Assembly: GCF_036507355.1 (NCBI RefSeq)
Contig: NZ_AP027877.1
From: Escherichia coli
GTDB taxonomy: Bacteria > Pseudomonadota > Gammaproteobacteria > Enterobacterales > Enterobacteriaceae
Length of the DNA: 64,000 nucleotides
Direction: 5' to 3' (one strand)
A program made the position numbers and the translations under genes. Below the pieces are notes generated by a model. That model did not search any database and was not told the origin of the DNA. It saw only the letters and a list, made by a program, of their open reading frames with translations. Below, piece by piece: positions 23,260 to 32,340 of the stretch. Numbering within the stretch: the first letter of the stretch is position 1; the number at the start of each line of letters is the position of its first letter.

Positions 23260-23626
23260 GATTGTGCTCCTTTTGAAAGATGTCAGTAAAATTAACACAC
23301 ATTGTGAATGTCGTGTGTCCGGTAATGCGTTTTTACGACAATAATGCCTGCTTGAAATTGTAGATATTTGCACTACACCCTTTTAAATAAAGCACCAACA
23401 AATCTTCAAATTGCAGGACATATTCTTCTGCCAATATACCATTAAGAAAACATCAAGTTCCCGGCTTGCCAATTTATTAACGCCCATTATAGACGCTGAA
23501 ACAAGCCACGGACAAAGAAGATGCCAAAATTACCGGCAATGCAGAAAAACTCAACGAACTGTTAGGTTAAATGGATAATTTTGAATTTTGGTTCAATATA
23601 GTGACACTATAAAATTACTTTGTATC

Positions 23627-23649
23627 GGGCAGGTGCCCTGCCCTTTTTT
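23627..23649 (+). terminator. Orphan rho-independent terminator (perfect 7-bp GC stem + T6)
   Basis: GGGCAGG-tgc-CCTGCCC followed by TTTTTT; overlaps a second CCCTTTTT/AAAAAGGG inverted repeat; no annotated + strand gene ends here. Confidence 0.5.
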
Positions 23650-23712
23650 AGTTAAAAAGGGCTGAAAGAAGAAATACGCATCATTCATGGAAAACTCGCC
23701 GCGATATGGTAA

Positions 23713-24015
23713 TTCGCGGCATGGCAATTAACTTGCCAGTCAGAGGATATTGTTGTCCGTTATGGTAGCGAAGATTTTGCCATCAAACTTTTTAATGCAA
23801 CATTGCCGGAAGCAGAGACGGTAGCAGCCAGAGTGAAACAAGAACTTAAACTGGCAGCTATCCCGCATCAGGCATCTGCTGTTAGTGCGTTCGTTACGGT
23901 TAGTCACGGGATTACCTGGTCTGCTCCCGCCAAAACGGCTGAACAAATTATTTCAGATGCCGACGCCGCGTTATACCGGGCGAAAGCAAGTGGGCGAAAT
24001 CGATGGGCTTTATAA
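23713..24015 (+). pseudogene. C-terminal fragment of a GGDEF-domain (diguanylate cyclase-like) protein
   Basis: In-frame translation ...RYGSEDFAIKL...SAFVTVSHGITW...ADAALYRAKASGRNRWAL matches the C-terminal half of GGDEF domains; no N-terminal part and a stop immediately upstream. Confidence 0.5.
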
Positions 24016-24078
24016 CTATTAGGGGACTGGCTAGATTACGTATCTTCGCTCTTAACAAGGACTGACGGCAGGGCAAGA

Positions 24079-24560
24079 TTACGAAAGCCCGCTCCCCGCA
24101 AGGACTGACGCCAGATAGTTTCTGTCCATGGCTGCTTTTCGCATCTTATGTCTTAACCCTGCCTTGAATACCTTATCATTCGTCAAAATATTAATAGCAA
24201 TGTGCCGTATCCCTGGAAATAATTCTGCTGCATTTCCTCTTCTTATTTTGCAGTCGTCTTCATTCATTACCACGTCCAGACGCCAGTGCAGCTTATTCTC
24301 CACGTGCCAGTGGTTTCGGATTGCTGTGGCGAACTTCTCTGCGGTTAAATCAGCAGAACTGATATAATATCTGACCGTCATTTCTGGCTCTTTCTTTTGT
24401 TCTGCTATTATGGACCGAAAGGAGACTGCCACGCATAATTTCTTCAGCCCTTTCCATTCAAACGTGAAATCAATAAGTTCATCAGGAACATCGCAAACAA
24501 TATGAAGACGGATTTCTTCTCTGCCGTGACTAAAATGCGAATTATTTAGTACAAAAAAAG
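24079..24560 (-). pseudogene. 3' remnant of an H-repeat / ISAs1-family transposase gene
   Basis: ORF 24079-24432 encodes ...[43 protein letters not shown]..., the conserved C-terminus of H-repeat proteins such as YdcC; further matching residues continue upstream in a shifted frame; N-terminal two-thirds absent. Confidence 0.6.
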
Positions 24561-24636
24561 CGGCGCACCTTGTTCTTTCCCAGATTCCTAATATGGCAAC
24601 TTTAAGTTATCGCCGTCTATACTTATAGAAATTTCA

Positions 24637-25092
24637 TCAGGGGTGACATAAATAGAATTTTTTTTCATCCTCAATTGCCCATAACTGATTAATAAAAAAG
24701 TGTTTTTTATCATCTAATAACAAATCATCACATGTAGTAAAATTATTAATATCAAAAAAATCATCAGCACAATTAATTTTTAAATTTAAAAAATAAAGAA
24801 AAATATTATTGATTGATTTGAGTGTAAACCACTTGTCATTAACAAATTTATAGCCAGATGATTTTATAAAATAATAATTATCTCCTGGTATAAAGGCATA
24901 CATATCATTTAAGGTTATACTCAACAAAAAACTACGACCTGGTTTAATAGTATTCCAGCGTTCAGGATTCGTATTAATTTCAAAAGGACATGAACCACCT
25001 AAGTAGTCCAACGTGATATTCCCAGAGTTGATCCTGGATGGTTTTTTGCATATCGCATCATATTCATCTCCTTTTCCATCTTTTACTTTCAT
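24637..25092 (-). CDS. Hypothetical protein (151 aa), AT-rich, translationally coupled to the upstream small ORF
   Basis: Start ATG overlaps the stop of the upstream ORF (ATGA at 25089-25092); no recognisable motif. Confidence 0.4.
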   Translation of the reverse strand: MKVKDGKGDEYDAICKKPSRINSGNITLDYLGGSCPFEINTNPERWNTIKPGRSFLLSITLNDMYAFIPGDNYYFIKSSGYKFVNDKWFTLKSINNIFLYFLNLKINCADDFFDINNFTTCDDLLLDDKKHFFINQLWAIEDEKKFYLCHP

Positions 25093-25379
25093 AGGTAGAT
25101 AATATTTAGAAAAAAATACGTGGTAGAGCTATTGTTAGTAAAGGTTATGTTAGCAAAAATCCTGTTATTTTTTTTACTCATAGCTAATTGAGCATTGACA
25201 TCCGCTATATAATTTATATGATTACATTTTTTCTTACACTCATCATAATTTTCGATAGGATAAATTAATGGCCTTCCTTTGATATCTCTCTCAAGCCCAA
25301 ACCCGTATTTTTTTATTAAAACCATTTCATCCGCAGTCGATTGAAAGGAATAGAAAAATATAATATTTACGATTGTCAT
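25089..25379 (-). CDS. Hypothetical small protein (96 aa), AT-rich
   Basis: ORF only; hydrophobic N-terminus; coupled to the downstream ORF. Confidence 0.35.
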   Translation of the reverse strand: MTIVNIIFFYSFQSTADEMVLIKKYGFGLERDIKGRPLIYPIENYDECKKKCNHINYIADVNAQLAMSKKNNRIFANITFTNNSSTTYFFLNIIYL

Positions 25380-25431
25380 TATTATGATTTTTTTATAGCT
25401 TGCAGCATTAATATATTTCTCGACTTATTAG

Positions 25432-26280
25432 TTAATGGAGAAGTGTTTTTTCTAATTCCGCTATTTTTTTCTTAACTGAATTGCTTAATATTTCATCATT
25501 AATCGAGTCTATCTCACTTTCAATTAATCTTATTTCAAAATATCTTTCTATGTTATATGCATTCTCAAATATTTGATCTTTTTGTTTAGAGATCAGTTTA
25601 GTTGCAATACGGATATGTTCGTCATATGAAACTTCATCCTCTTTGCACGTTGAATATTTATCAGTAGTTGTATAATCCTGTGACCACATACCACCTTTTT
25701 TATTATCCCCATAATACCACTGAATATGAGACATTTCATGACATAAAGTAGCAACATGAGAATCCTTTCCCGTTACTGGATTTTTTTTGCCATCTCTATA
25801 CTCAAATTTTGCGCCTATGTTAATTATATAGGGCATATCCTTACTTGGGCTGACGAATGCTGCAAATTCATTACAACCTGTATAATTTATAAAACTGCTC
25901 ATTGTTAAATCATTAGCTATAATCATTAATCTTCTCACGCCATCCATCATAAGAAATCTAGCATTCATGCGCCTACCTGTATTATGTCCATATTTTCTTA
26001 TATTAACTTCCTTATTTCCTTTAACACCAAAGATCTTACTGAAATAATATTCCTCCTGTGCTCCCCATCTCAAAAGATCATCTGCTCTTTTTATCAAAAC
26101 CAACTTTTGTGCCTTACGAGCCTTATCAATCATTATTTTAAAATGATCAGTTATTTTTTGCTCTTTCACACATTCTTCTGGCTCTGGCTTTGGTTGTCCA
26201 GAAGTTTGATTATTATCGTCCATAGTGTCCTTCCATTGAGAGAAAATCATCATTCGCAAATAGCAACTAAAAAGCAGCAT
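25432..26280 (-). CDS. Hypothetical protein with HExxH motif (putative zincin-like metallopeptidase or toxin domain)
   Basis: Motif ATLCHEMSHIQWYYG; ~30% GC; true start may be the internal MDDNNQ (26223); function inferred from motif only. Confidence 0.45.
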   Translation of the reverse strand: MLLFSCYLRMMIFSQWKDTMDDNNQTSGQPKPEPEECVKEQKITDHFKIMIDKARKAQKLVLIKRADDLLRWGAQEEYYFSKIFGVKGNKEVNIRKYGHNTGRRMNARFLMMDGVRRLMIIANDLTMSSFINYTGCNEFAAFVSPSKDMPYIINIGAKFEYRDGKKNPVTGKDSHVATLCHEMSHIQWYYGDNKKGGMWSQDYTTTDKYSTCKEDEVSYDEHIRIATKLISKQKDQIFENAYNIERYFEIRLIESEIDSINDEILSNSVKKKIAELEKTLLH

Positions 26281-26410
26281 TACTTGACCTTTCCCTGCAT
26301 AACAATATTTATAAAATAATACGTTTTATGATCTCACCTTGGGCTCCCAACAAGATAATTTCAGTTTTAAAGACTTTCACGAAAAAAATATAGAAATACC
26401 TCACCACCCT

Positions 26411-26701
26411 TCACTTACCAATTAATCTCACAGGAAATCCAACTTCCTTACCACAAATACAATCCCAAGTAACACCTCCCAAAATTTTTGATACTTTAGG
26501 CTGCAATGGCATTATTGACATTATAAATTTATCAAGTTCTTCGCTATATTTAATTCCCTTTATATTTCTTATTATTGATATTCTAGCAGTAAAGATAGCC
26601 GTCTCTCCATCTACACTAAAAGTGTAATTACAATTTTTTGTAATCTCATCAAATTCAACCGATAACAAATCAATATTATGGTTTGTAAACACTATGCCCA
26701 T
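26411..26701 (-). CDS. Putative immunity protein for the upstream effector
   Basis: 96-aa ORF whose start overlaps the effector 3' end by 26 nt; call rests on position and size only. Confidence 0.4.
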   Translation of the reverse strand: MGIVFTNHNIDLLSVEFDEITKNCNYTFSVDGETAIFTARISIIRNIKGIKYSEELDKFIMSIMPLQPKVSKILGGVTWDCICGKEVGFPVRLIGK

Positions 26702-28115
26702 TCCATACCTCCTTAAATTCCTGTTCAGTCATCAGATATCGACTCCCTTGATATGGATCATATATTATCACATTCCCAGCATCATCAACACCCTTAACAA
26801 GTACCCAATGCCCTACTTTACTTCCAGAATCCCACATCATTGCTCCCCATGAACCAGTATTACTGAGGGCATATAAACTAGATTCGCTCACTGCATTCCC
26901 TTCCCAGCCGACATCAAATTTATTAAGCTTGTTTGCCAGCGACGTCATAGATGTTAATTCTGTTCCAATTACATTTTGCGTGACAAAAATATACCTATCC
27001 CTAAGCAACATTTCCCCACAGGCCGCTCCACAGCCTGTTAAAGTCAATTGCTTTATTACATTTGAATCTAAAACCTCATCAAATACTGTCCAATTGCCAC
27101 CAGCACCACCTTCTAAAACTACCGGCTCTACAAATACTTTCCCAGAGATATTTTCTTCTGGTATTTTTGCGGGTATCATAAAGCCCCATAAAAAGCTGGC
27201 AAAATGCTCCAGAGCAATCTGATCACCATTATTTGCATCCATTATCATTTTTTTAAGTGCATCCCATGCTTGCCCATTTATCAATGAATCACTAATATTA
27301 AATAAAGCCTGTTCTTTTTCGTTTAAATTTATATTTGCCTGTTCACATAACCCATCTTCGCCTATCGGGCAAGCAACCGTTGCCGTTGCCGTATCTAACA
27401 GAGCATCGAATGTAACTAAGGCTAAATCCGCCACACCATGTAAAGTGGTGATTGCTCCATTCCCCATTTGAGTAAGTGTGTTCTCTACAAACCATTCTCT
27501 AATTTGAGATTTATCTCCTTCAATATCATTCCTGAGAGATTCTCTGATATTCTTTATTGAAAAAAACTCCCCCCATGATTGGTCAGGATCTTTTATTTGG
27601 AATAAATCATTTTTAACCTCAGGTGAAATATCTCCGTCAAAAATATTACCAACAGAGAGGAGATCCTTCAGAAGCAGTAAATCGTGTATTACTTCAGCAG
27701 TCCTTTCATAATTAAAAGTTCTATCAATGACAGAAATCATTGGTGATTTTATTTTGGTATATAATTTACCAAGGCAGTTATGGTTATTAATCCCAACAAC
27801 TGAACCATGATAAGCGACAGGTCTCCCCTCTATTGTTACAGTCGGACTTCCCGTTAAAATAACGCAGTCACCTGTTCCTTGAGATGTACCAGATATGACA
27901 CCTTTACCGGCATTACTTTGAGTTCCAGCAATCACTGAACCAACATTTAAAGCTCTGCATCCACGCGCCCATACCGTTGAACTGTACTGCCTTTCACTAT
28001 CTAAAGTCTGGTAACTGTCAAAAGGAACCTTGTCACCTCCTACTTCACATACATCTGGTGAAGAGCACACGACTTTAAATCTACATTCACCATCCCCGAT
28101 ATGATAGCTACCCAT
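26676..28115 (-). CDS. Putative T6SS effector: N-terminal DUF4150-type PAAR-like domain, C-terminal C39-like papain-fold Cys peptidase domain
   Basis: N-term SPDVC...VPFDSY...GKGVISGTSQG...TVTIEGRPVAYHGSVVGINNHN resembles the DUF4150 pattern; C-term GCGAACGEML and GHWVLVKGVDD...IIYDP resemble Cys and His motifs of C39/papain-like peptidases; downstream of vgrG. Confidence 0.6.
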   Translation of the reverse strand: MGSYHIGDGECRFKVVCSSPDVCEVGGDKVPFDSYQTLDSERQYSSTVWARGCRALNVGSVIAGTQSNAGKGVISGTSQGTGDCVILTGSPTVTIEGRPVAYHGSVVGINNHNCLGKLYTKIKSPMISVIDRTFNYERTAEVIHDLLLLKDLLSVGNIFDGDISPEVKNDLFQIKDPDQSWGEFFSIKNIRESLRNDIEGDKSQIREWFVENTLTQMGNGAITTLHGVADLALVTFDALLDTATATVACPIGEDGLCEQANINLNEKEQALFNISDSLINGQAWDALKKMIMDANNGDQIALEHFASFLWGFMIPAKIPEENISGKVFVEPVVLEGGAGGNWTVFDEVLDSNVIKQLTLTGCGAACGEMLLRDRYIFVTQNVIGTELTSMTSLANKLNKFDVGWEGNAVSESSLYALSNTGSWGAMMWDSGSKVGHWVLVKGVDDAGNVIIYDPYQGSRYLMTEQEFKEVWNGHSVYKP

Positions 28116-28698
28116 AATATTTTTTTCCTATACATTCAGGAATAATACAACTCAGCACTCCTTCTTTCATTCCAAAAAAATCAGGTATTGTCAATCTCCA
28201 GGTAAGGTATATTTCCTGTCGATTTAAATCGATAACCATTGTATCCGCAACAGGTAAGAACATATGAGATGTATTATGCTTGGTTTTTAATATAAGTACA
28301 GGTCGTATACCTGGCAATTTTGTCTTAACAACCTGTTCAAATTTAAAAAAACCTTCAAGAGTGATGTTTTCATCGCCAGAGAGAAACCCCGCGTATATCA
28401 TATCCGGATGAGCACTATTGTAGAACCTCTCATCAAAATCATCCGGCAAATAGGGATAGCGCTTTTCACGCCATACTTCATTGTAGGTTCCTGCATACTG
28501 GAGGCGACTTTTCCACCATCGAGATACAGGGCCAACGCCTTGAAAAAAGTCAGATTCCCCATTAAAAATGGTAGCGTTTTCTGACAAAGCAGAGCTGGTT
28601 ATTTGTGGGAGTTTATATTGACAACTTGTATTAAGTTGGGAAATATCAGGATAATATCCACAACCTACAGGGTTTGCTGAAAAAACCAATTTTCCCAT
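28108..28698 (-). CDS. Hypothetical protein in adaptor/chaperone position between vgrG and the effector
   Basis: 196-aa ORF; stop overlaps effector start by 8 nt; adaptor role (DUF2169-type by analogy) inferred from gene order only. Confidence 0.35.
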   Translation of the reverse strand: MGKLVFSANPVGCGYYPDISQLNTSCQYKLPQITSSALSENATIFNGESDFFQGVGPVSRWWKSRLQYAGTYNEVWREKRYPYLPDDFDERFYNSAHPDMIYAGFLSGDENITLEGFFKFEQVVKTKLPGIRPVLILKTKHNTSHMFLPVADTMVIDLNRQEIYLTWRLTIPDFFGMKEGVLSCIIPECIGKKYYG

Positions 28699-29560
28699 AC
28701 CATCTGGTTGCCAAATACCACCGTAAGCAAGCTCATAGCGTAGAGGAATATTAATAATTTTATCGTGAGATGCTGATCGTTCGCTACCACAATCTTCTGA
28801 TCATGACTGCCTTCCTTCTTACTCCCAACATTCACCGTCTGACCCACACCCACCGTAATTTTCTGGTTATTGGTTATGGTTTCCGTGTGGTCGTGTTTCA
28901 CCGTCGTCGTCCGGTCATTCAGCACCTCCGTATCCATGTTCTTCTGCGCATGGATATACACCTGCTCATTACTGGTGGCGTCTTCAAACCGCAGCTCGTT
29001 AAATCCGCTTCCTTTATAGGTTTTTGACCGGATGGTCATCTGCGTCTTCGTTCCCGGCAGGTCGCCCGGCGAACGGTTGTCCTCATGGTAGGTCCGCCCC
29101 ATGATTATCGGCTGGTCCGGGTCGCCGTTCAGAAAATCAACAATCACCTCCTGGCCCACCCGCGGTATCGCCAGGTTACCGAACCCCGGCCCCGCCCACG
29201 CCTGCGATACCCGCACCCAGCATGAACTCGCCTCCGTCATCCCGTGATAACGGTCCCAGTGGAACTTCACCCGTACCCGGCCATGTTCATCGCAGAAGAT
29301 TTCCTCTCCCGCAGGCCCGGTGACAATGGCACTCTGCGGCCCGTCCACCTTCGGTTTGCTTTGCAGCCGTGGACGCCACGTCCGGTCCGCCGGTATCACC
29401 TCTAACTGATTTCCCAGCGTGGTTCCTCTCCCTTGGCTGCCGTGCAGCGCCTGCGGCTGGTTTCCTGACAGAATGCTCTGTACCACCTGCCATTCACGGT
29501 TCAGCATCTTCTGCGGATGAGGTGTACTGGCAATAGCGGACACTACCATTTGTTCTTTTT

Positions 29561-30379
29561 TTAAGCAGCCATCTGATGATATTTTTCCCTGAAGGCTGCC
29601 GGGGAGATATTCCCCAGACGAGAGTGACGACGCTGACGATTGTAGAAAATCTCAATGTATTCCCGTATTACTGAGATGGCTTCATCCCGGTTATTAAAAC
29701 GATAGTGGCTCAGGCTCTCATTTTTCAGCGTTCCCCAGAAGCTTTCCATCGGAGCGTTGTCGTAACAGTTACCTTTACGCGACATTGATGTTTTCAGACC
29801 AAACTGCTCCTGTATGACCCGGTAATCGTATGCGCAGTACTGTGAACCTCGATCAGAGTGGTGGATTAGCCCGGCAGGTGGGCGCTGTCTCCTGAGCGCC
29901 ATAAACAGGGCTTTACCTGTCAGCTCTTTTGTCATGCGCTCTCCCATGGCGTAGCCGACAATTTCGCACGTATAAACATCTTTGATGCCAGCGAGGTACA
30001 ACCATCCCTCCTGTGTGGCAACATACGTCAGGTCCGCCACCCAGACCTGATTTGGTGCTGTAGGAGCGAACGTCTGGTTCAGCAGATTTGGCGCAACTGG
30101 CAGATTGTGGTTCGAGTTCGTAGTCGCTCTGAACTTGCGTTTCTGCTTACAGCGTAGCCTTAGCTCCTTACGAAGACGTGCCAGTCGGTCACGACCAACG
30201 ATGATGCCATTCTCTGCCAGCTCCGTCTGGAGCCGCCGGGTTCCATATGTTTCGCGAGTGCGGATATGTGCCACCTTAATCTCCAGTTTTAGCCGCTCAT
30301 CACTTTGTTTTCTGTCTGAGGGTTCATGCTGTACCCAGTTGTAATAACCGCTCCTGGATACACCAAATACCTGACACAT
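29561..30379 (-). CDS. IS600-like transposase OrfB (DDE integrase core)
   Basis: 272-aa ORF with IS3-family OrfB sequence; normally expressed as an OrfAB fusion by -1 frameshifting. Confidence 0.8.
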   Translation of the reverse strand: MCQVFGVSRSGYYNWVQHEPSDRKQSDERLKLEIKVAHIRTRETYGTRRLQTELAENGIIVGRDRLARLRKELRLRCKQKRKFRATTNSNHNLPVAPNLLNQTFAPTAPNQVWVADLTYVATQEGWLYLAGIKDVYTCEIVGYAMGERMTKELTGKALFMALRRQRPPAGLIHHSDRGSQYCAYDYRVIQEQFGLKTSMSRKGNCYDNAPMESFWGTLKNESLSHYRFNNRDEAISVIREYIEIFYNRQRRHSRLGNISPAAFREKYHQMAA

Positions 30380-30414
30380 CGCTTCAATGGGAAATTGTTG
30401 TCGCCATTGTTCGA

Positions 30415-30717
30415 TTAACGCGTATTTTTCAGCGACTCCTGTGCAAAATACGCTGTTGCTTTTTTTAATATATCTCGCTCAAGGCGAGCTTCATTTAACG
30501 CCTTACGCAGTTGCAGAATTTCAGATTCCAGTTCAGCCACCGTGCGGGAACCAGGAGTACCGAGCCCTTTTCTGGCGGCGGTAACCCATTGTCCTAAAGT
30601 GCCTTCAGGAAGAGATAATCGGGAAGCGCCTTCACTGATCGAAAGTTGATTTTCAAGAACCGTTCTGACAGCTTCGGCTTTGAACTCTTTAGAGTAACGT
30701 TGGGTTTTTCTGCTCAT
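30415..30717 (-). CDS. IS600-like transposase OrfA (HTH)
   Basis: 100-aa ORF MSRKTQRYSKEFKAEAVR... typical of IS3-family OrfA. Confidence 0.8.
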   Translation of the reverse strand: MSRKTQRYSKEFKAEAVRTVLENQLSISEGASRLSLPEGTLGQWVTAARKGLGTPGSRTVAELESEILQLRKALNEARLERDILKKATAYFAQESLKNTR

Positions 30718-31725
30718 TATTAGCTCCTTCTGATGCCATTCTATTTCAGGAAGGAGTGTCCGTTAAACTCAGGCTACCTCAGGATGCCCCGTCAGCGTAA
30801 ACCGCGTTCCCGGCCACAGCCTCGGCGAATTACTCTGCCCTGTGGCCTTTTCCGCATCACTGCGCAGGCTCTCCATCTGGTACAGCGTGAAATCCTTGCC
30901 GTGCTGCTCATCCTTGAACCTTCCCGGATAATCAAATATTTCATACTGCGCCAGCTGTCCGTTCAGGTTCTCACCCTGCTGCTCATACATCCCCGGCCAG
31001 TCCGGCACCTTAAACGTGTAATCCTGGCTCTGCACCGACGACGGGCGGACATGCGCCTCATAACGGAACATACTGAGACACTCCGTCTCCGCTCCTGCCG
31101 ATGTGTCCGGGTTAAACGGAAGCTCTCCCGCCTGTGACAGCCCCGCCACATCGTCGCACAGCGTCAGCTTCTGCTCCGGACTGTCCGCCGCAAACCGCTC
31201 AAAGAAGAAAATTCCCTCCTCCGCCCACAGCCGGGACAGAAACGCCAGGTCGCTTTCCCCGTACTGGACACAGAACTCCCGCGCCGGATGGTCCTCATAA
31301 AACAGCGGCGTCCACTCCGTGACGCCGTTCTCGTTCAGTAACGTGGCCGATATCGTCCGGATATCCTGCTGCTGGAAGATACGGAAGTTCTGCCGCAGCC
31401 CGCACCGCCATAACGGCGGCTCAATACGCAGGTGATAACGCATCTGCCAGCCGTTATTCTCCTGCATACCAAAACCCGCCACCACGCCGGTGACATAACG
31501 CTGCGCCACTGCGCCCTGCCAGATGGTCAGCGTCGCCTTCTTCTCCAGCAGCATCTCCGCCGTCTGCATAAAAGAGTCGCTGGCAACATCCACACTCATC
31601 ACAAACGGATATGACTGGCTCTGGATTAACCGGAAGCTCACCACTGCAAAGGTGTCCGGCTCCTGGCCGTCAACCTCCAGCGTAAAGCGAAGACCTTTTA
31701 ATGACATAAATACCTCTCAGACATA

Positions 31726-32010
31726 TCAGCCTATATTTACCGTGCCGCCACCGATAACCACGCCGCCGCAGTCAACAGCATCACCGCTTCTGGCGGCGGG
31801 CAGACCGTCAATAAAGACGGTTGAAGAACCTCTGGCGATTTTTCGGGGATGAGGGGGATGCTTCGGTTTAGCATGCGGCGTCAGCGGATCTCCCTGACGG
31901 GCTGCGGGAAGACCATCGATAAAGACGGTGGATGACCCGGCGGTGATGACGGTCTCGTAATAACCGTCGTGCTGGGTGCCTTTGTCGGTGAGTTTGGCTG
32001 CTAAAGGCAT
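31726..32010 (-). CDS. PAAR-repeat protein (T6SS spike tip)
   Basis: 94-aa ORF containing GLPAARQGD and GLPAARSGD; immediately upstream of vgrG on the same strand. Confidence 0.8.
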   Translation of the reverse strand: MPLAAKLTDKGTQHDGYYETVITAGSSTVFIDGLPAARQGDPLTPHAKPKHPPHPRKIARGSSTVFIDGLPAARSGDAVDCGGVVIGGGTVNIG

Positions 32011-32340
32011 AATTCCTCCTGTTCAGAATTTCTACAGCAGCAGGTTTCAAAAATCCGGAGAAATATTCAACGAAATATTAATCACTTCACCGGATATTCT
32101 GATACGTACCTTCACTGGTCTATTTAAGTAATACAAATTGTTGGCGTGTATTAAGTTCCATTTTGTTCTCCTTAATTATGTAAGGAGTATTTGATCATGT
32201 ATAAGCAATAAAAACAGCTTCAGGAAATAAGGAATATCGCAATTTTTAAACATAAAATGCGAATCGTTCAATACAAAAAAGCAGCGTTGCGTAATCTTTC
32301 CCTGATTAAATACGCTACCGCCCTACTCTGATGACATGAT

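Follow-up and report, generated by a model that had tools for sequence, protein, structure and literature searches.

The 64,000-nt stretch of Escherichia coli DNA analysed here (hereafter the window; contig NZ_AP027877.1 of assembly GCF_036507355.1) carries, between yncG and pptA, a region that is very probably a decayed auxiliary type VI secretion system (T6SS) island organised around vgrG and holding two effector/immunity modules, both of which belong to families that have already been described. The first module consists of the cysteine protease effector Cpe1 and its immunity protein Cpi1, and the second of an aspzincin (M35-like) metallopeptidase effector and the gene of its partner protein. 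In the window, vgrG and the gene of the DUF2169 chaperone are disrupted and the partner gene of the M35 effector is frameshifted; cpe1, cpi1, the PAAR gene and the M35 gene are intact. All coordinates refer to the whole window, and the open reading frames (ORFs) of the island, in region 24079-32279, all lie on the minus strand (Table 1).

Read along this strand, the island consists of the PAAR gene, a vgrG split by IS600, a fragment of a DUF2169 gene, the 479-aa effector with its 96-aa partner, an HExxH protein followed by small ORFs, and finally remnants of an ISAs1/H-repeat element and of a GGDEF gene. It is flanked by yncG on one side and by the ISAs1/H-repeat remnant, the GGDEF fragment and pptA on the other. 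An earlier interpretation made from the letters of the DNA alone (the sequence-only reading) had described a degraded vgrG-linked T6SS spike/effector island at the site occupied by rhsE in K-12, and the model matches, the lesions and the yncG and pptA flanks all agree with this description; every ORF that it had named was recovered at the same position and on the minus strand in the ORF list. Profile searches of the kind it had proposed identified PAAR, VgrG, DUF4150, DUF2169 and Peptidase_C39, and the E-values of the domain matches of the island ORFs are well outside chance. A search of the cargo ORFs against NCBIfam gave no match, and the identity of the cargo was instead drawn from the PDB, Pfam and RefSeq annotation. 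The fall in GC content from vgrG into the cargo, which had been noted before, was confirmed, with values of 0.57-0.58 in the PAAR gene and vgrG and of 0.29-0.39 in the cargo, as compared to 0.484 for the whole window. No T6SS core genes were found within the window. A scan for promoters and terminators returned an enrichment of promoter-like sites, as AT-rich DNA would give, and was uninformative.

On sequence identity, the pair of 479-aa and 96-aa proteins is Cpe1/Cpi1. The larger protein matches Tox-PAAR-like/DUF4150 (PF13665) at residues 15-115 (E 1.9e-11) and Peptidase_C39 (PF03412) at residues 352-474 (E 1.2e-5), its residues 337-479 (143/143) show 100% identity to chain A of PDB 9l5u, and the catalytic C362 is present. 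It differs by eight substitutions from the protein of strain IHE3034, and the exact 479-aa sequence was found on 14 contigs. The immunity gene lies directly downstream of cpe1 with a 26-nt overlap (26676-26701), and the names cpe1 and cpi1 are already in use for these genes in the PGAP annotation of other genomes. The sequence-only reading had regarded the cargo as uncharacterised in E. coli, a view that cannot be upheld given that the Cpe1/Cpi1 pair is identical to one that has been crystallised, that the same architecture is known from XmtU/XmtV, and that the M35 protein shares 30-34% identity with proteins of E. coli PAR.

Cpe1 of E. coli ATCC 11775 was shown to be a papain-like cysteine protease that cuts GyrB and ParE at Gly-Gly motifs and contributes to the killing of MG1655 by a T6SS-active strain, and to be blocked by Cpi1, which competes for the surface that binds the substrate (Song et al., PLoS Biol 2025, PMC12136450). 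The toxin domain and the immunity protein of the window are identical to those of ATCC 11775 at all 143 and 96 positions, respectively, and the two systems also share the PAAR-like N-terminus followed by a C39/papain-like toxin with C362, the overlap of the two genes, and a DUF2169 gene and vgrG upstream. In contrast to ATCC 11775, the window vgrG is split by IS600 and truncated, the DUF2169 gene is without its first ~130 codons, and the module is found within the yncG-pptA island instead of closing the core T6SS cluster. The window Cpe1 is predicted to cleave GyrB and ParE, as was shown for the identical toxin domain (PMC12136450); its delivery from the broken locus is doubtful. In avian pathogenic E. 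coli (APEC), the operon hcp2B, vgrG2, DUF2169, xmtU, xmtV was shown in 2018 to function as an effector/immunity system, with Hcp2B and VgrG2 being required (PMC5874247); the likeness of XmtU/XmtV of APEC TW-XM to the window module is one of architecture and not a sequence comparison.

An intact form of the locus is present in E. coli PapRG-04-4, in the order PAAR, vgrG (660 aa), DUF2169 (348 aa), cpe1 and cpi1, and the comparison with this strain revealed how the spike genes of the window were lost. The PAAR gene, annotated as type VI secretion system PAAR protein in syntenic genomes, is unaffected. The window vgrG is collinear with the intact 660-codon vgrG of PapRG-04-4, and its gp27/gp5-like core is matched by two fragments, but there is no uninterrupted full-length frame, and the last ~102 codons are deleted. 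The element that separates the two fragments shows 99.9% identity over 1262 bp to elements annotated as IS600 in Shigella sonnei and E. coli plasmids; it has the ends TG...CA and a 3-bp target duplication (GGA) on both sides (29515-29517 and 30782-30784), the junctions being read directly against the uninterrupted target sequence in PapRG-04-4. Moreover, a deletion of 803 bp at a short microhomology removed the 3' end of vgrG together with the intergenic region and the start of the DUF2169 gene (~130 codons). The 196-aa ORF, which the sequence-only reading had listed, proved in the alignment to PapRG-04-4 to be a truncated DUF2169 fragment, beginning at an internal Met of the 348-codon gene and carrying an incomplete domain; the intact 348-aa homologue is annotated as a DUF2169 T6SS accessory protein in PapRG and IHE3034.

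Table 1. Features of the island and its borders, with window coordinates, strand and supporting evidence.
Feature	Coordinates	Strand	Evidence or remark
720-bp stretch without K-12 match, holding a GGDEF (diguanylate cyclase) 3' fragment	23349..24068	+	ORF 23803-24015; between ydcC remnant and pptA
H-repeat (ISAs1-family, ydcC-like) transposase 3' remnant	24069..24531	-	NF033564 positions 241-314/314, E 7e-29
M35 partner pseudogene, ~273 codons if intact	24588..25408	-	96-aa ORF 25089-25379 + 151-aa ORF 24637-25092
Aspzincin (M35-like) metallopeptidase effector gene, intact, 263 aa	25432..26223	-	
Recombination breakpoint	26266..26268	.	Above, core-cluster cpe1 cassette; below, the island's own M35 module
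cpi1, intact 96-aa immunity gene	26411..26701	-	96/96 residues identical to PDB 9l5u_C 'Cpi1'
cpe1, intact 479-aa effector gene	26676..28115	-	PAAR-like (DUF4150/PIPY) N-terminus, papain-like cysteine protease toxin C-terminus
DUF2169 chaperone/adaptor gene, 3' remnant	28108..28757	-	Pfam DUF2169 (PF09937) E 3e-39, model positions 137-294/294 only
Deletion junction, 803 bp, 7-bp microhomology (TTTTATC on + strand)	28758..28764	.	Alignment to PapRG-04-4; BLAST coordinates vs L002; junction sequences
vgrG middle fragment, ~codons 308-558	28765..29517	-	TIGR03361 positions 298-513, E 2e-99 (ORF 28665-29549)
IS600 (IS3 family), 1264 bp, in vgrG	29518..30781	-	orfA 30415-30717; orfB 29561-30379
vgrG 5' fragment, ~codons 1-308, cut by IS600	30785..31707	-	TIGR03361 positions 1-302, E 4e-76 (ORF 30769-31707)
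T6SS PAAR spike-tip gene, 94 aa, intact	31726..32010	-	NF033420, 156.5 bits, cut-off 124, model 1-94/94
Left end of same kind of H-repeat element	32151..32279	-	Between yncG and PAAR

DUF4150/PIPY domains have been shown to require a DUF2169 chaperone in order to form a functional spike with VgrG (Sachar et al., PMC11883445). Since both vgrG and the DUF2169 gene are broken here, Cpe1 should not be deliverable from this locus, which presumably no longer builds a spike or mounts the effector. The intact cpi1, on the other hand, presumably still protects the cell against neighbouring E. coli armed with Cpe1. We also considered if the region could be part of a working arsenal, in which the VgrG and DUF2169 paralogues of a core cluster elsewhere in the genome receive Cpe1, and perhaps also the M35 effector, in trans and only the local spike is dead. 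Such an arrangement would agree with a full-length cpe1 that retains its catalytic Cys and recurs unchanged on the 14 contigs mentioned above, with the intact PAAR gene, and with the many E. coli that have a core cluster with a 98%-identical vgrG, DUF2169, cpe1 module. However, cpe1 is found at exactly one place per carrying genome, so that a second set of DUF2169 and vgrG would be unusual, and DUF2169/PIPY pairs are described as cognate (PMC11883445). As the source chromosome is moreover only 4.64 Mb and three separate lesions in one operon resemble relaxed selection, we find loading in trans unlikely.

The second module begins with the M35 gene, of which the 282-aa ORF starting at 26280 is an upstream extension; databases hold a 263-aa protein starting at 26223. 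The protein has both the HExxH motif and the downstream Asp, the third zinc ligand, by which Aspzincin/MEROPS M35 peptidases are recognised, and H162, E163, H166 and D183 are invariant in 21 homologues. The family is small and found in Enterobacteriaceae only, the closest relatives being from Salmonella (63%) and Buttiauxella (55%). When its profile was compared to the PDB, AsaP1 (1e-6) and GfMEP (1.4e-4) were matched, and the structural model of the effector has the aspzincin fold, matching the 2x3a chain as well as aspzincins that consist of the catalytic domain only. Against Pfam PF14521, the single M35 sequence gave a weak match (E 0.0054), and a precomputed PF14521 match was found in three distant homologues. 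In the native contexts that were fetched, the M35 gene starts at or overlaps the end of a vgrG of 800-840 aa and is followed by an ORF of 206-305 aa, and the order vgrG, M35, partner was seen in all contexts examined (Salmonella, two Buttiauxella, Franconibacter, Cronobacter, Rahnella and E. coli Rb-3).

In the window, the gene in the partner position had been perceived as two coupled small ORFs by the sequence-only reading. These are instead pieces of one frameshifted gene, as tblastn of the 276-aa Salmonella and 266-aa Buttiauxella partners passed through window frames 2, 1 and 2 in succession, and a base by base comparison with the intact allele of GPT24-02 showed one T missing from a T8 run at ~25116 and one extra A in an A7 run at ~24665. 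The N-termini of the partner homologues are hydrophobic and signal-peptide-like, and the partner is probably a periplasmic immunity protein. All the length differences are located within A or T runs of 7-8 bases, and the extra A at ~24665 is unique to the window and absent from the assemblies of clone-mates, which would be expected if the frameshifts were homopolymer assembly errors and the M35 pair was in fact intact. In contrast, the deletion at ~25116, which breaks the frame alone, has the same form in three independent assemblies of this clone (L019, L020 and L021) and is hence real. Furthermore, other lineages have their own, different breaks in the partner and M35 genes, as expected of a decaying orphan, and it is therefore highly improbable that assembly errors account for the loss of the partner gene.

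A further A run, in an A7 or A8 state, was observed at the 5' end of the partner gene (~25389; ~4990 in L002), and the protein starts either with MLQAIKKIII-MTIVN (273 aa, with the basic n-region typical of Sec substrates) or with MTIVN (263 aa). Each state occurs commonly in E. coli, and this run may act as a slippage-prone on/off or export switch.

How the two modules came to share one locus was addressed by genome comparison, according to which the island is a composite of two effector/immunity modules of described families. The yncG-pptA island of E. coli Rb-3 contains PAAR, vgrG (801 aa), M35, partner and an ISAs1 remnant, and the end of the core T6SS cluster of IHE3034 contains hcp, vgrG (660 aa), DUF2169, cpe1, cpi1 and an ISAs1 remnant. 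Homology to the core cluster of IHE3034 extends over window positions 26266-28764 (98.6%) and homology to the Rb-3 island over 24531-26268 (98.5%), and the limits of these two segments place the breakpoint at 26266-26268, in line with the cassette exchange at the vgrG 3' end that the sequence-only reading had proposed. Of the displaced 801-codon vgrG, only the last 45 bp remain ahead of the M35 start. The incoming cassette appears to have replaced the part of vgrG that encodes the extension carrying the M35 effector, and the M35 module was therefore orphaned. The merging of two modules also explains the presence of a canonical PAAR gene together with a PAAR-like effector within one island.

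Displaced or orphan effector/immunity modules are known from Rhs and CdiA orphan arrays and from the T6SS auxiliary clusters of Vibrio cholerae, where an incoming cassette at the 3' end of the carrier gene pushes the older pair downstream to decay and the immunity genes tend to persist. In contrast to the Rhs and CdiA orphan arrays, the carrier in the window is vgrG, and the displaced module retains a full-length effector gene and not a C-terminal tip. In Salmonella (L003 9735-10814; L005 9738-10817), a 359-aa C-terminal fragment of vgrG was observed downstream of vgrG, M35 and partner, followed by further unannotated ORFs, which suggests serial displacement of vgrG-linked cassettes there as well.

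Among 5426 complete E. coli genomes, the M35 module was present in 508 and cpi1 in 332, with an identity of at least 99% in 331 of the latter, and full cpe1 together with the 3' part of the DUF2169 gene was present in 299 (~5.5%). The intact composite island was found in a single genome, PapRG-04-4. The configuration of the window occurs in at least six other assemblies, which have the 803-bp deletion and contig breaks at the IS600 edge. A different deletion of ~2.6 kb was found in O145:H28, ESDR8 (L001) and GPT24-02 (L010), fusing vgrG to the 3' 500 bp of cpe1; it takes the DUF2169 gene and the PAAR-like domain of the effector and spares cpi1.

Taken as a sequence of events, these comparisons suggest that the original island comprised PAAR, a vgrG of 801 codons, M35 and its immunity gene, as in Rb-3, Salmonella and Buttiauxella. 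A cassette from a core T6SS cluster, with the 3' part of vgrG, DUF2169, cpe1 and cpi1 as in IHE3034, would then have recombined in and displaced the vgrG 3' end, and the IS600 insertion in vgrG, the 803-bp microhomology deletion and the homopolymer frameshift in the M35 partner would be later lesions in this clone. In an intact system of this kind, the PAAR-like domain of Cpe1 is expected to cap the VgrG trimer with the aid of the DUF2169 chaperone, and the toxin to cleave GyrB and ParE, whereby DNA replication and chromosome segregation in the target cell would be blocked unless Cpi1 neutralised Cpe1 by competing at the substrate-binding surface. The product of the second module would, in its native context, be a zinc metallopeptidase effector loaded by the preceding VgrG of 800-840 aa. 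In the window, the M35 effector appears to be left with no cognate carrier, and it would be harmless in the cytoplasm of the producer provided that its site of action is the periplasm, as for related metallopeptidase effectors.

The closest described system for the second module is that of E. coli PAR, whose effector M35PAR is toxic, is neutralised by the immunity protein encoded downstream and is loaded via the DUF2345 part of VgrG (Liu et al., Commun Biol 2023, PMC10673891). The T6SS cluster of this strain (L014 5770-14429) contains two tandem modules of vgrG, M35-like gene and partner, the second vgrG being frameshifted, and this split is probably why 'VgrG' and 'DUF2345' were studied there as separate proteins (PMC10673891). 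The window M35 protein shows 30% identity (E 6e-33) to the 262-aa protein of PAR and 34% (E 4e-40) to its 246-aa paralogue, and the partners are 26-28% identical (E 2e-21 to 4e-23). The native order of vgrG, effector and partner is the same in both systems; unlike M35PAR, the window protein belongs to a divergent subfamily, no longer has its carrier vgrG and is followed by a frameshifted partner gene. The HExxH motif and downstream Asp are likewise shared with the aspzincin (MEROPS M35) peptidyl-Lys metalloendopeptidases GfMEP (1g12), AsaP1 (2x3a) and deuterolysin (1eb6), whereas the window protein has no signal peptide or fused propeptide, carries a long extra N-terminal helical region, and is encoded beside vgrG as T6SS cargo. 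A further comparison can be made to the VgrG2b C-terminal metallopeptidase/PA0261 and Tpe1/Tpi1, in which an HExxH toxin delivered by VgrG acts in the periplasm and the immunity protein is exported by a signal peptide (Wood et al. 2019, PMC6899460). The likeness of VgrG2b to the window M35 lies in the way of working, the window effector being a separate gene and not a VgrG fusion.

Some observations nevertheless weigh against our interpretation of the island as a decayed composite with two modules of known kind. The sparing of cpi1 could reflect chance and not selection. A fully intact cpe1 is unexpected if the gene is useless, and it could be in service in trans. The left crossover, internal to vgrG, could not be mapped, as the vgrG bodies are mosaic with 88-95% identity to every comparator. 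As to the M35 module, searches of the PDB gave no sequence or fold match to the VgrG2b metallopeptidase domain of Pseudomonas (6H56); hence, the comparison with VgrG2b concerns mechanism and not family membership, and a periplasmic action of the M35 effector is deduced solely from the signal-peptide-like N-terminus of the partner. Finally, the 262-aa and 308-aa proteins of PAR were equated with AKO63_2955 and AKO63_2956 (M35PAR and its immunity protein) from gene order and the split vgrG, and cluster look-ups returned no locus tags to confirm these two names.

The structural model of the partner protein contains a confident beta-sandwich core. Aspzincins consisting of the catalytic domain only are at the top of the structure-match list of the effector and absent from that of the partner, and the partner is therefore probably matched to the propeptide half of AsaP1. 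Hence, we speculated if the M35 effector and its partner could represent an aspzincin zymogen that was split into two genes, the immunity protein being a detached pro-domain, and on the basis of the models we tentatively put this forward as a possibility. If true, a free-standing, Sec-exported pro-domain would block the active site like the propeptide of a protease, and an effector/immunity pair would have evolved here by a distinct route of its own. The profile of the partner family found nothing relevant in the PDB or Pfam in support of this idea, and no fused form of M35 and partner was found, the longest of 170 representative partner homologues being without an HExxH domain.

Both cargo modules thus fall into families that have been described, and for the proteins to which the main one is identical both the structure and the target are known, for which reason the locus has little discovery value. 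It rather illustrates the evolution of T6SS auxiliary islands, in that a resident effector is displaced by a cassette arriving at the vgrG 3' end and the weapon then decays by IS insertion, microhomology deletion and homopolymer slippage. Lineages including O145:H28 have broken the same island differently, each retaining cpi1. Further work could be worthwhile on one point, the resemblance of the M35 immunity protein to an aspzincin propeptide at which the structures hint.

In K-12, yncH, rhsE', ydcD, yncI' and ydcC are located between yncG and pptA. The presence of rhsE' at this site and the H-repeat (ISAs1) remnants typical of Rhs elements could suggest that the ORFs derive from the break-up of one rhs gene or Rhs element, an outcome that the sequence-only reading had named as refuting its view, but this is refuted, since no ORF matches an Rhs or YD-repeat model, each ORF is assigned to a non-Rhs family, and the H-repeat ends are the sole homology to K-12 inside the island; the sequence-only reading was accordingly right that there is no rhs core.

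The H-repeat remnant on the pptA side shows 98.3% identity to the 3' end of K-12 ydcC. The remnant between yncG and PAAR is 93.8% identical to K-12 sequence spanning the start of ydcC (L011 12698-12827) and ~86% identical to sequence downstream of cpi1 in the core cluster of IHE3034 (L008 8468-8622). The whole island from PAAR to the immunity gene is hence enclosed by the two ends of one ISAs1-family H-repeat of the K-12 ydcC type, the 3' 463 bp of which follow the immunity pseudogene. H-repeat copies may serve as recombination substrates by which cassettes are moved or deleted.

The 720-bp stretch between the ydcC remnant and pptA shows 98.7% identity to a region adjoining ydcC in E. coli OkiPb01695 that is annotated as 'diguanylate cyclase domain-containing protein', and OkiPb01695 is the only complete genome of the collection with this stretch in full. 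Related sequence of 80-99% identity was present in ~690 genomes, located beside an alkyl/aryl-sulfatase gene among the matches listed.

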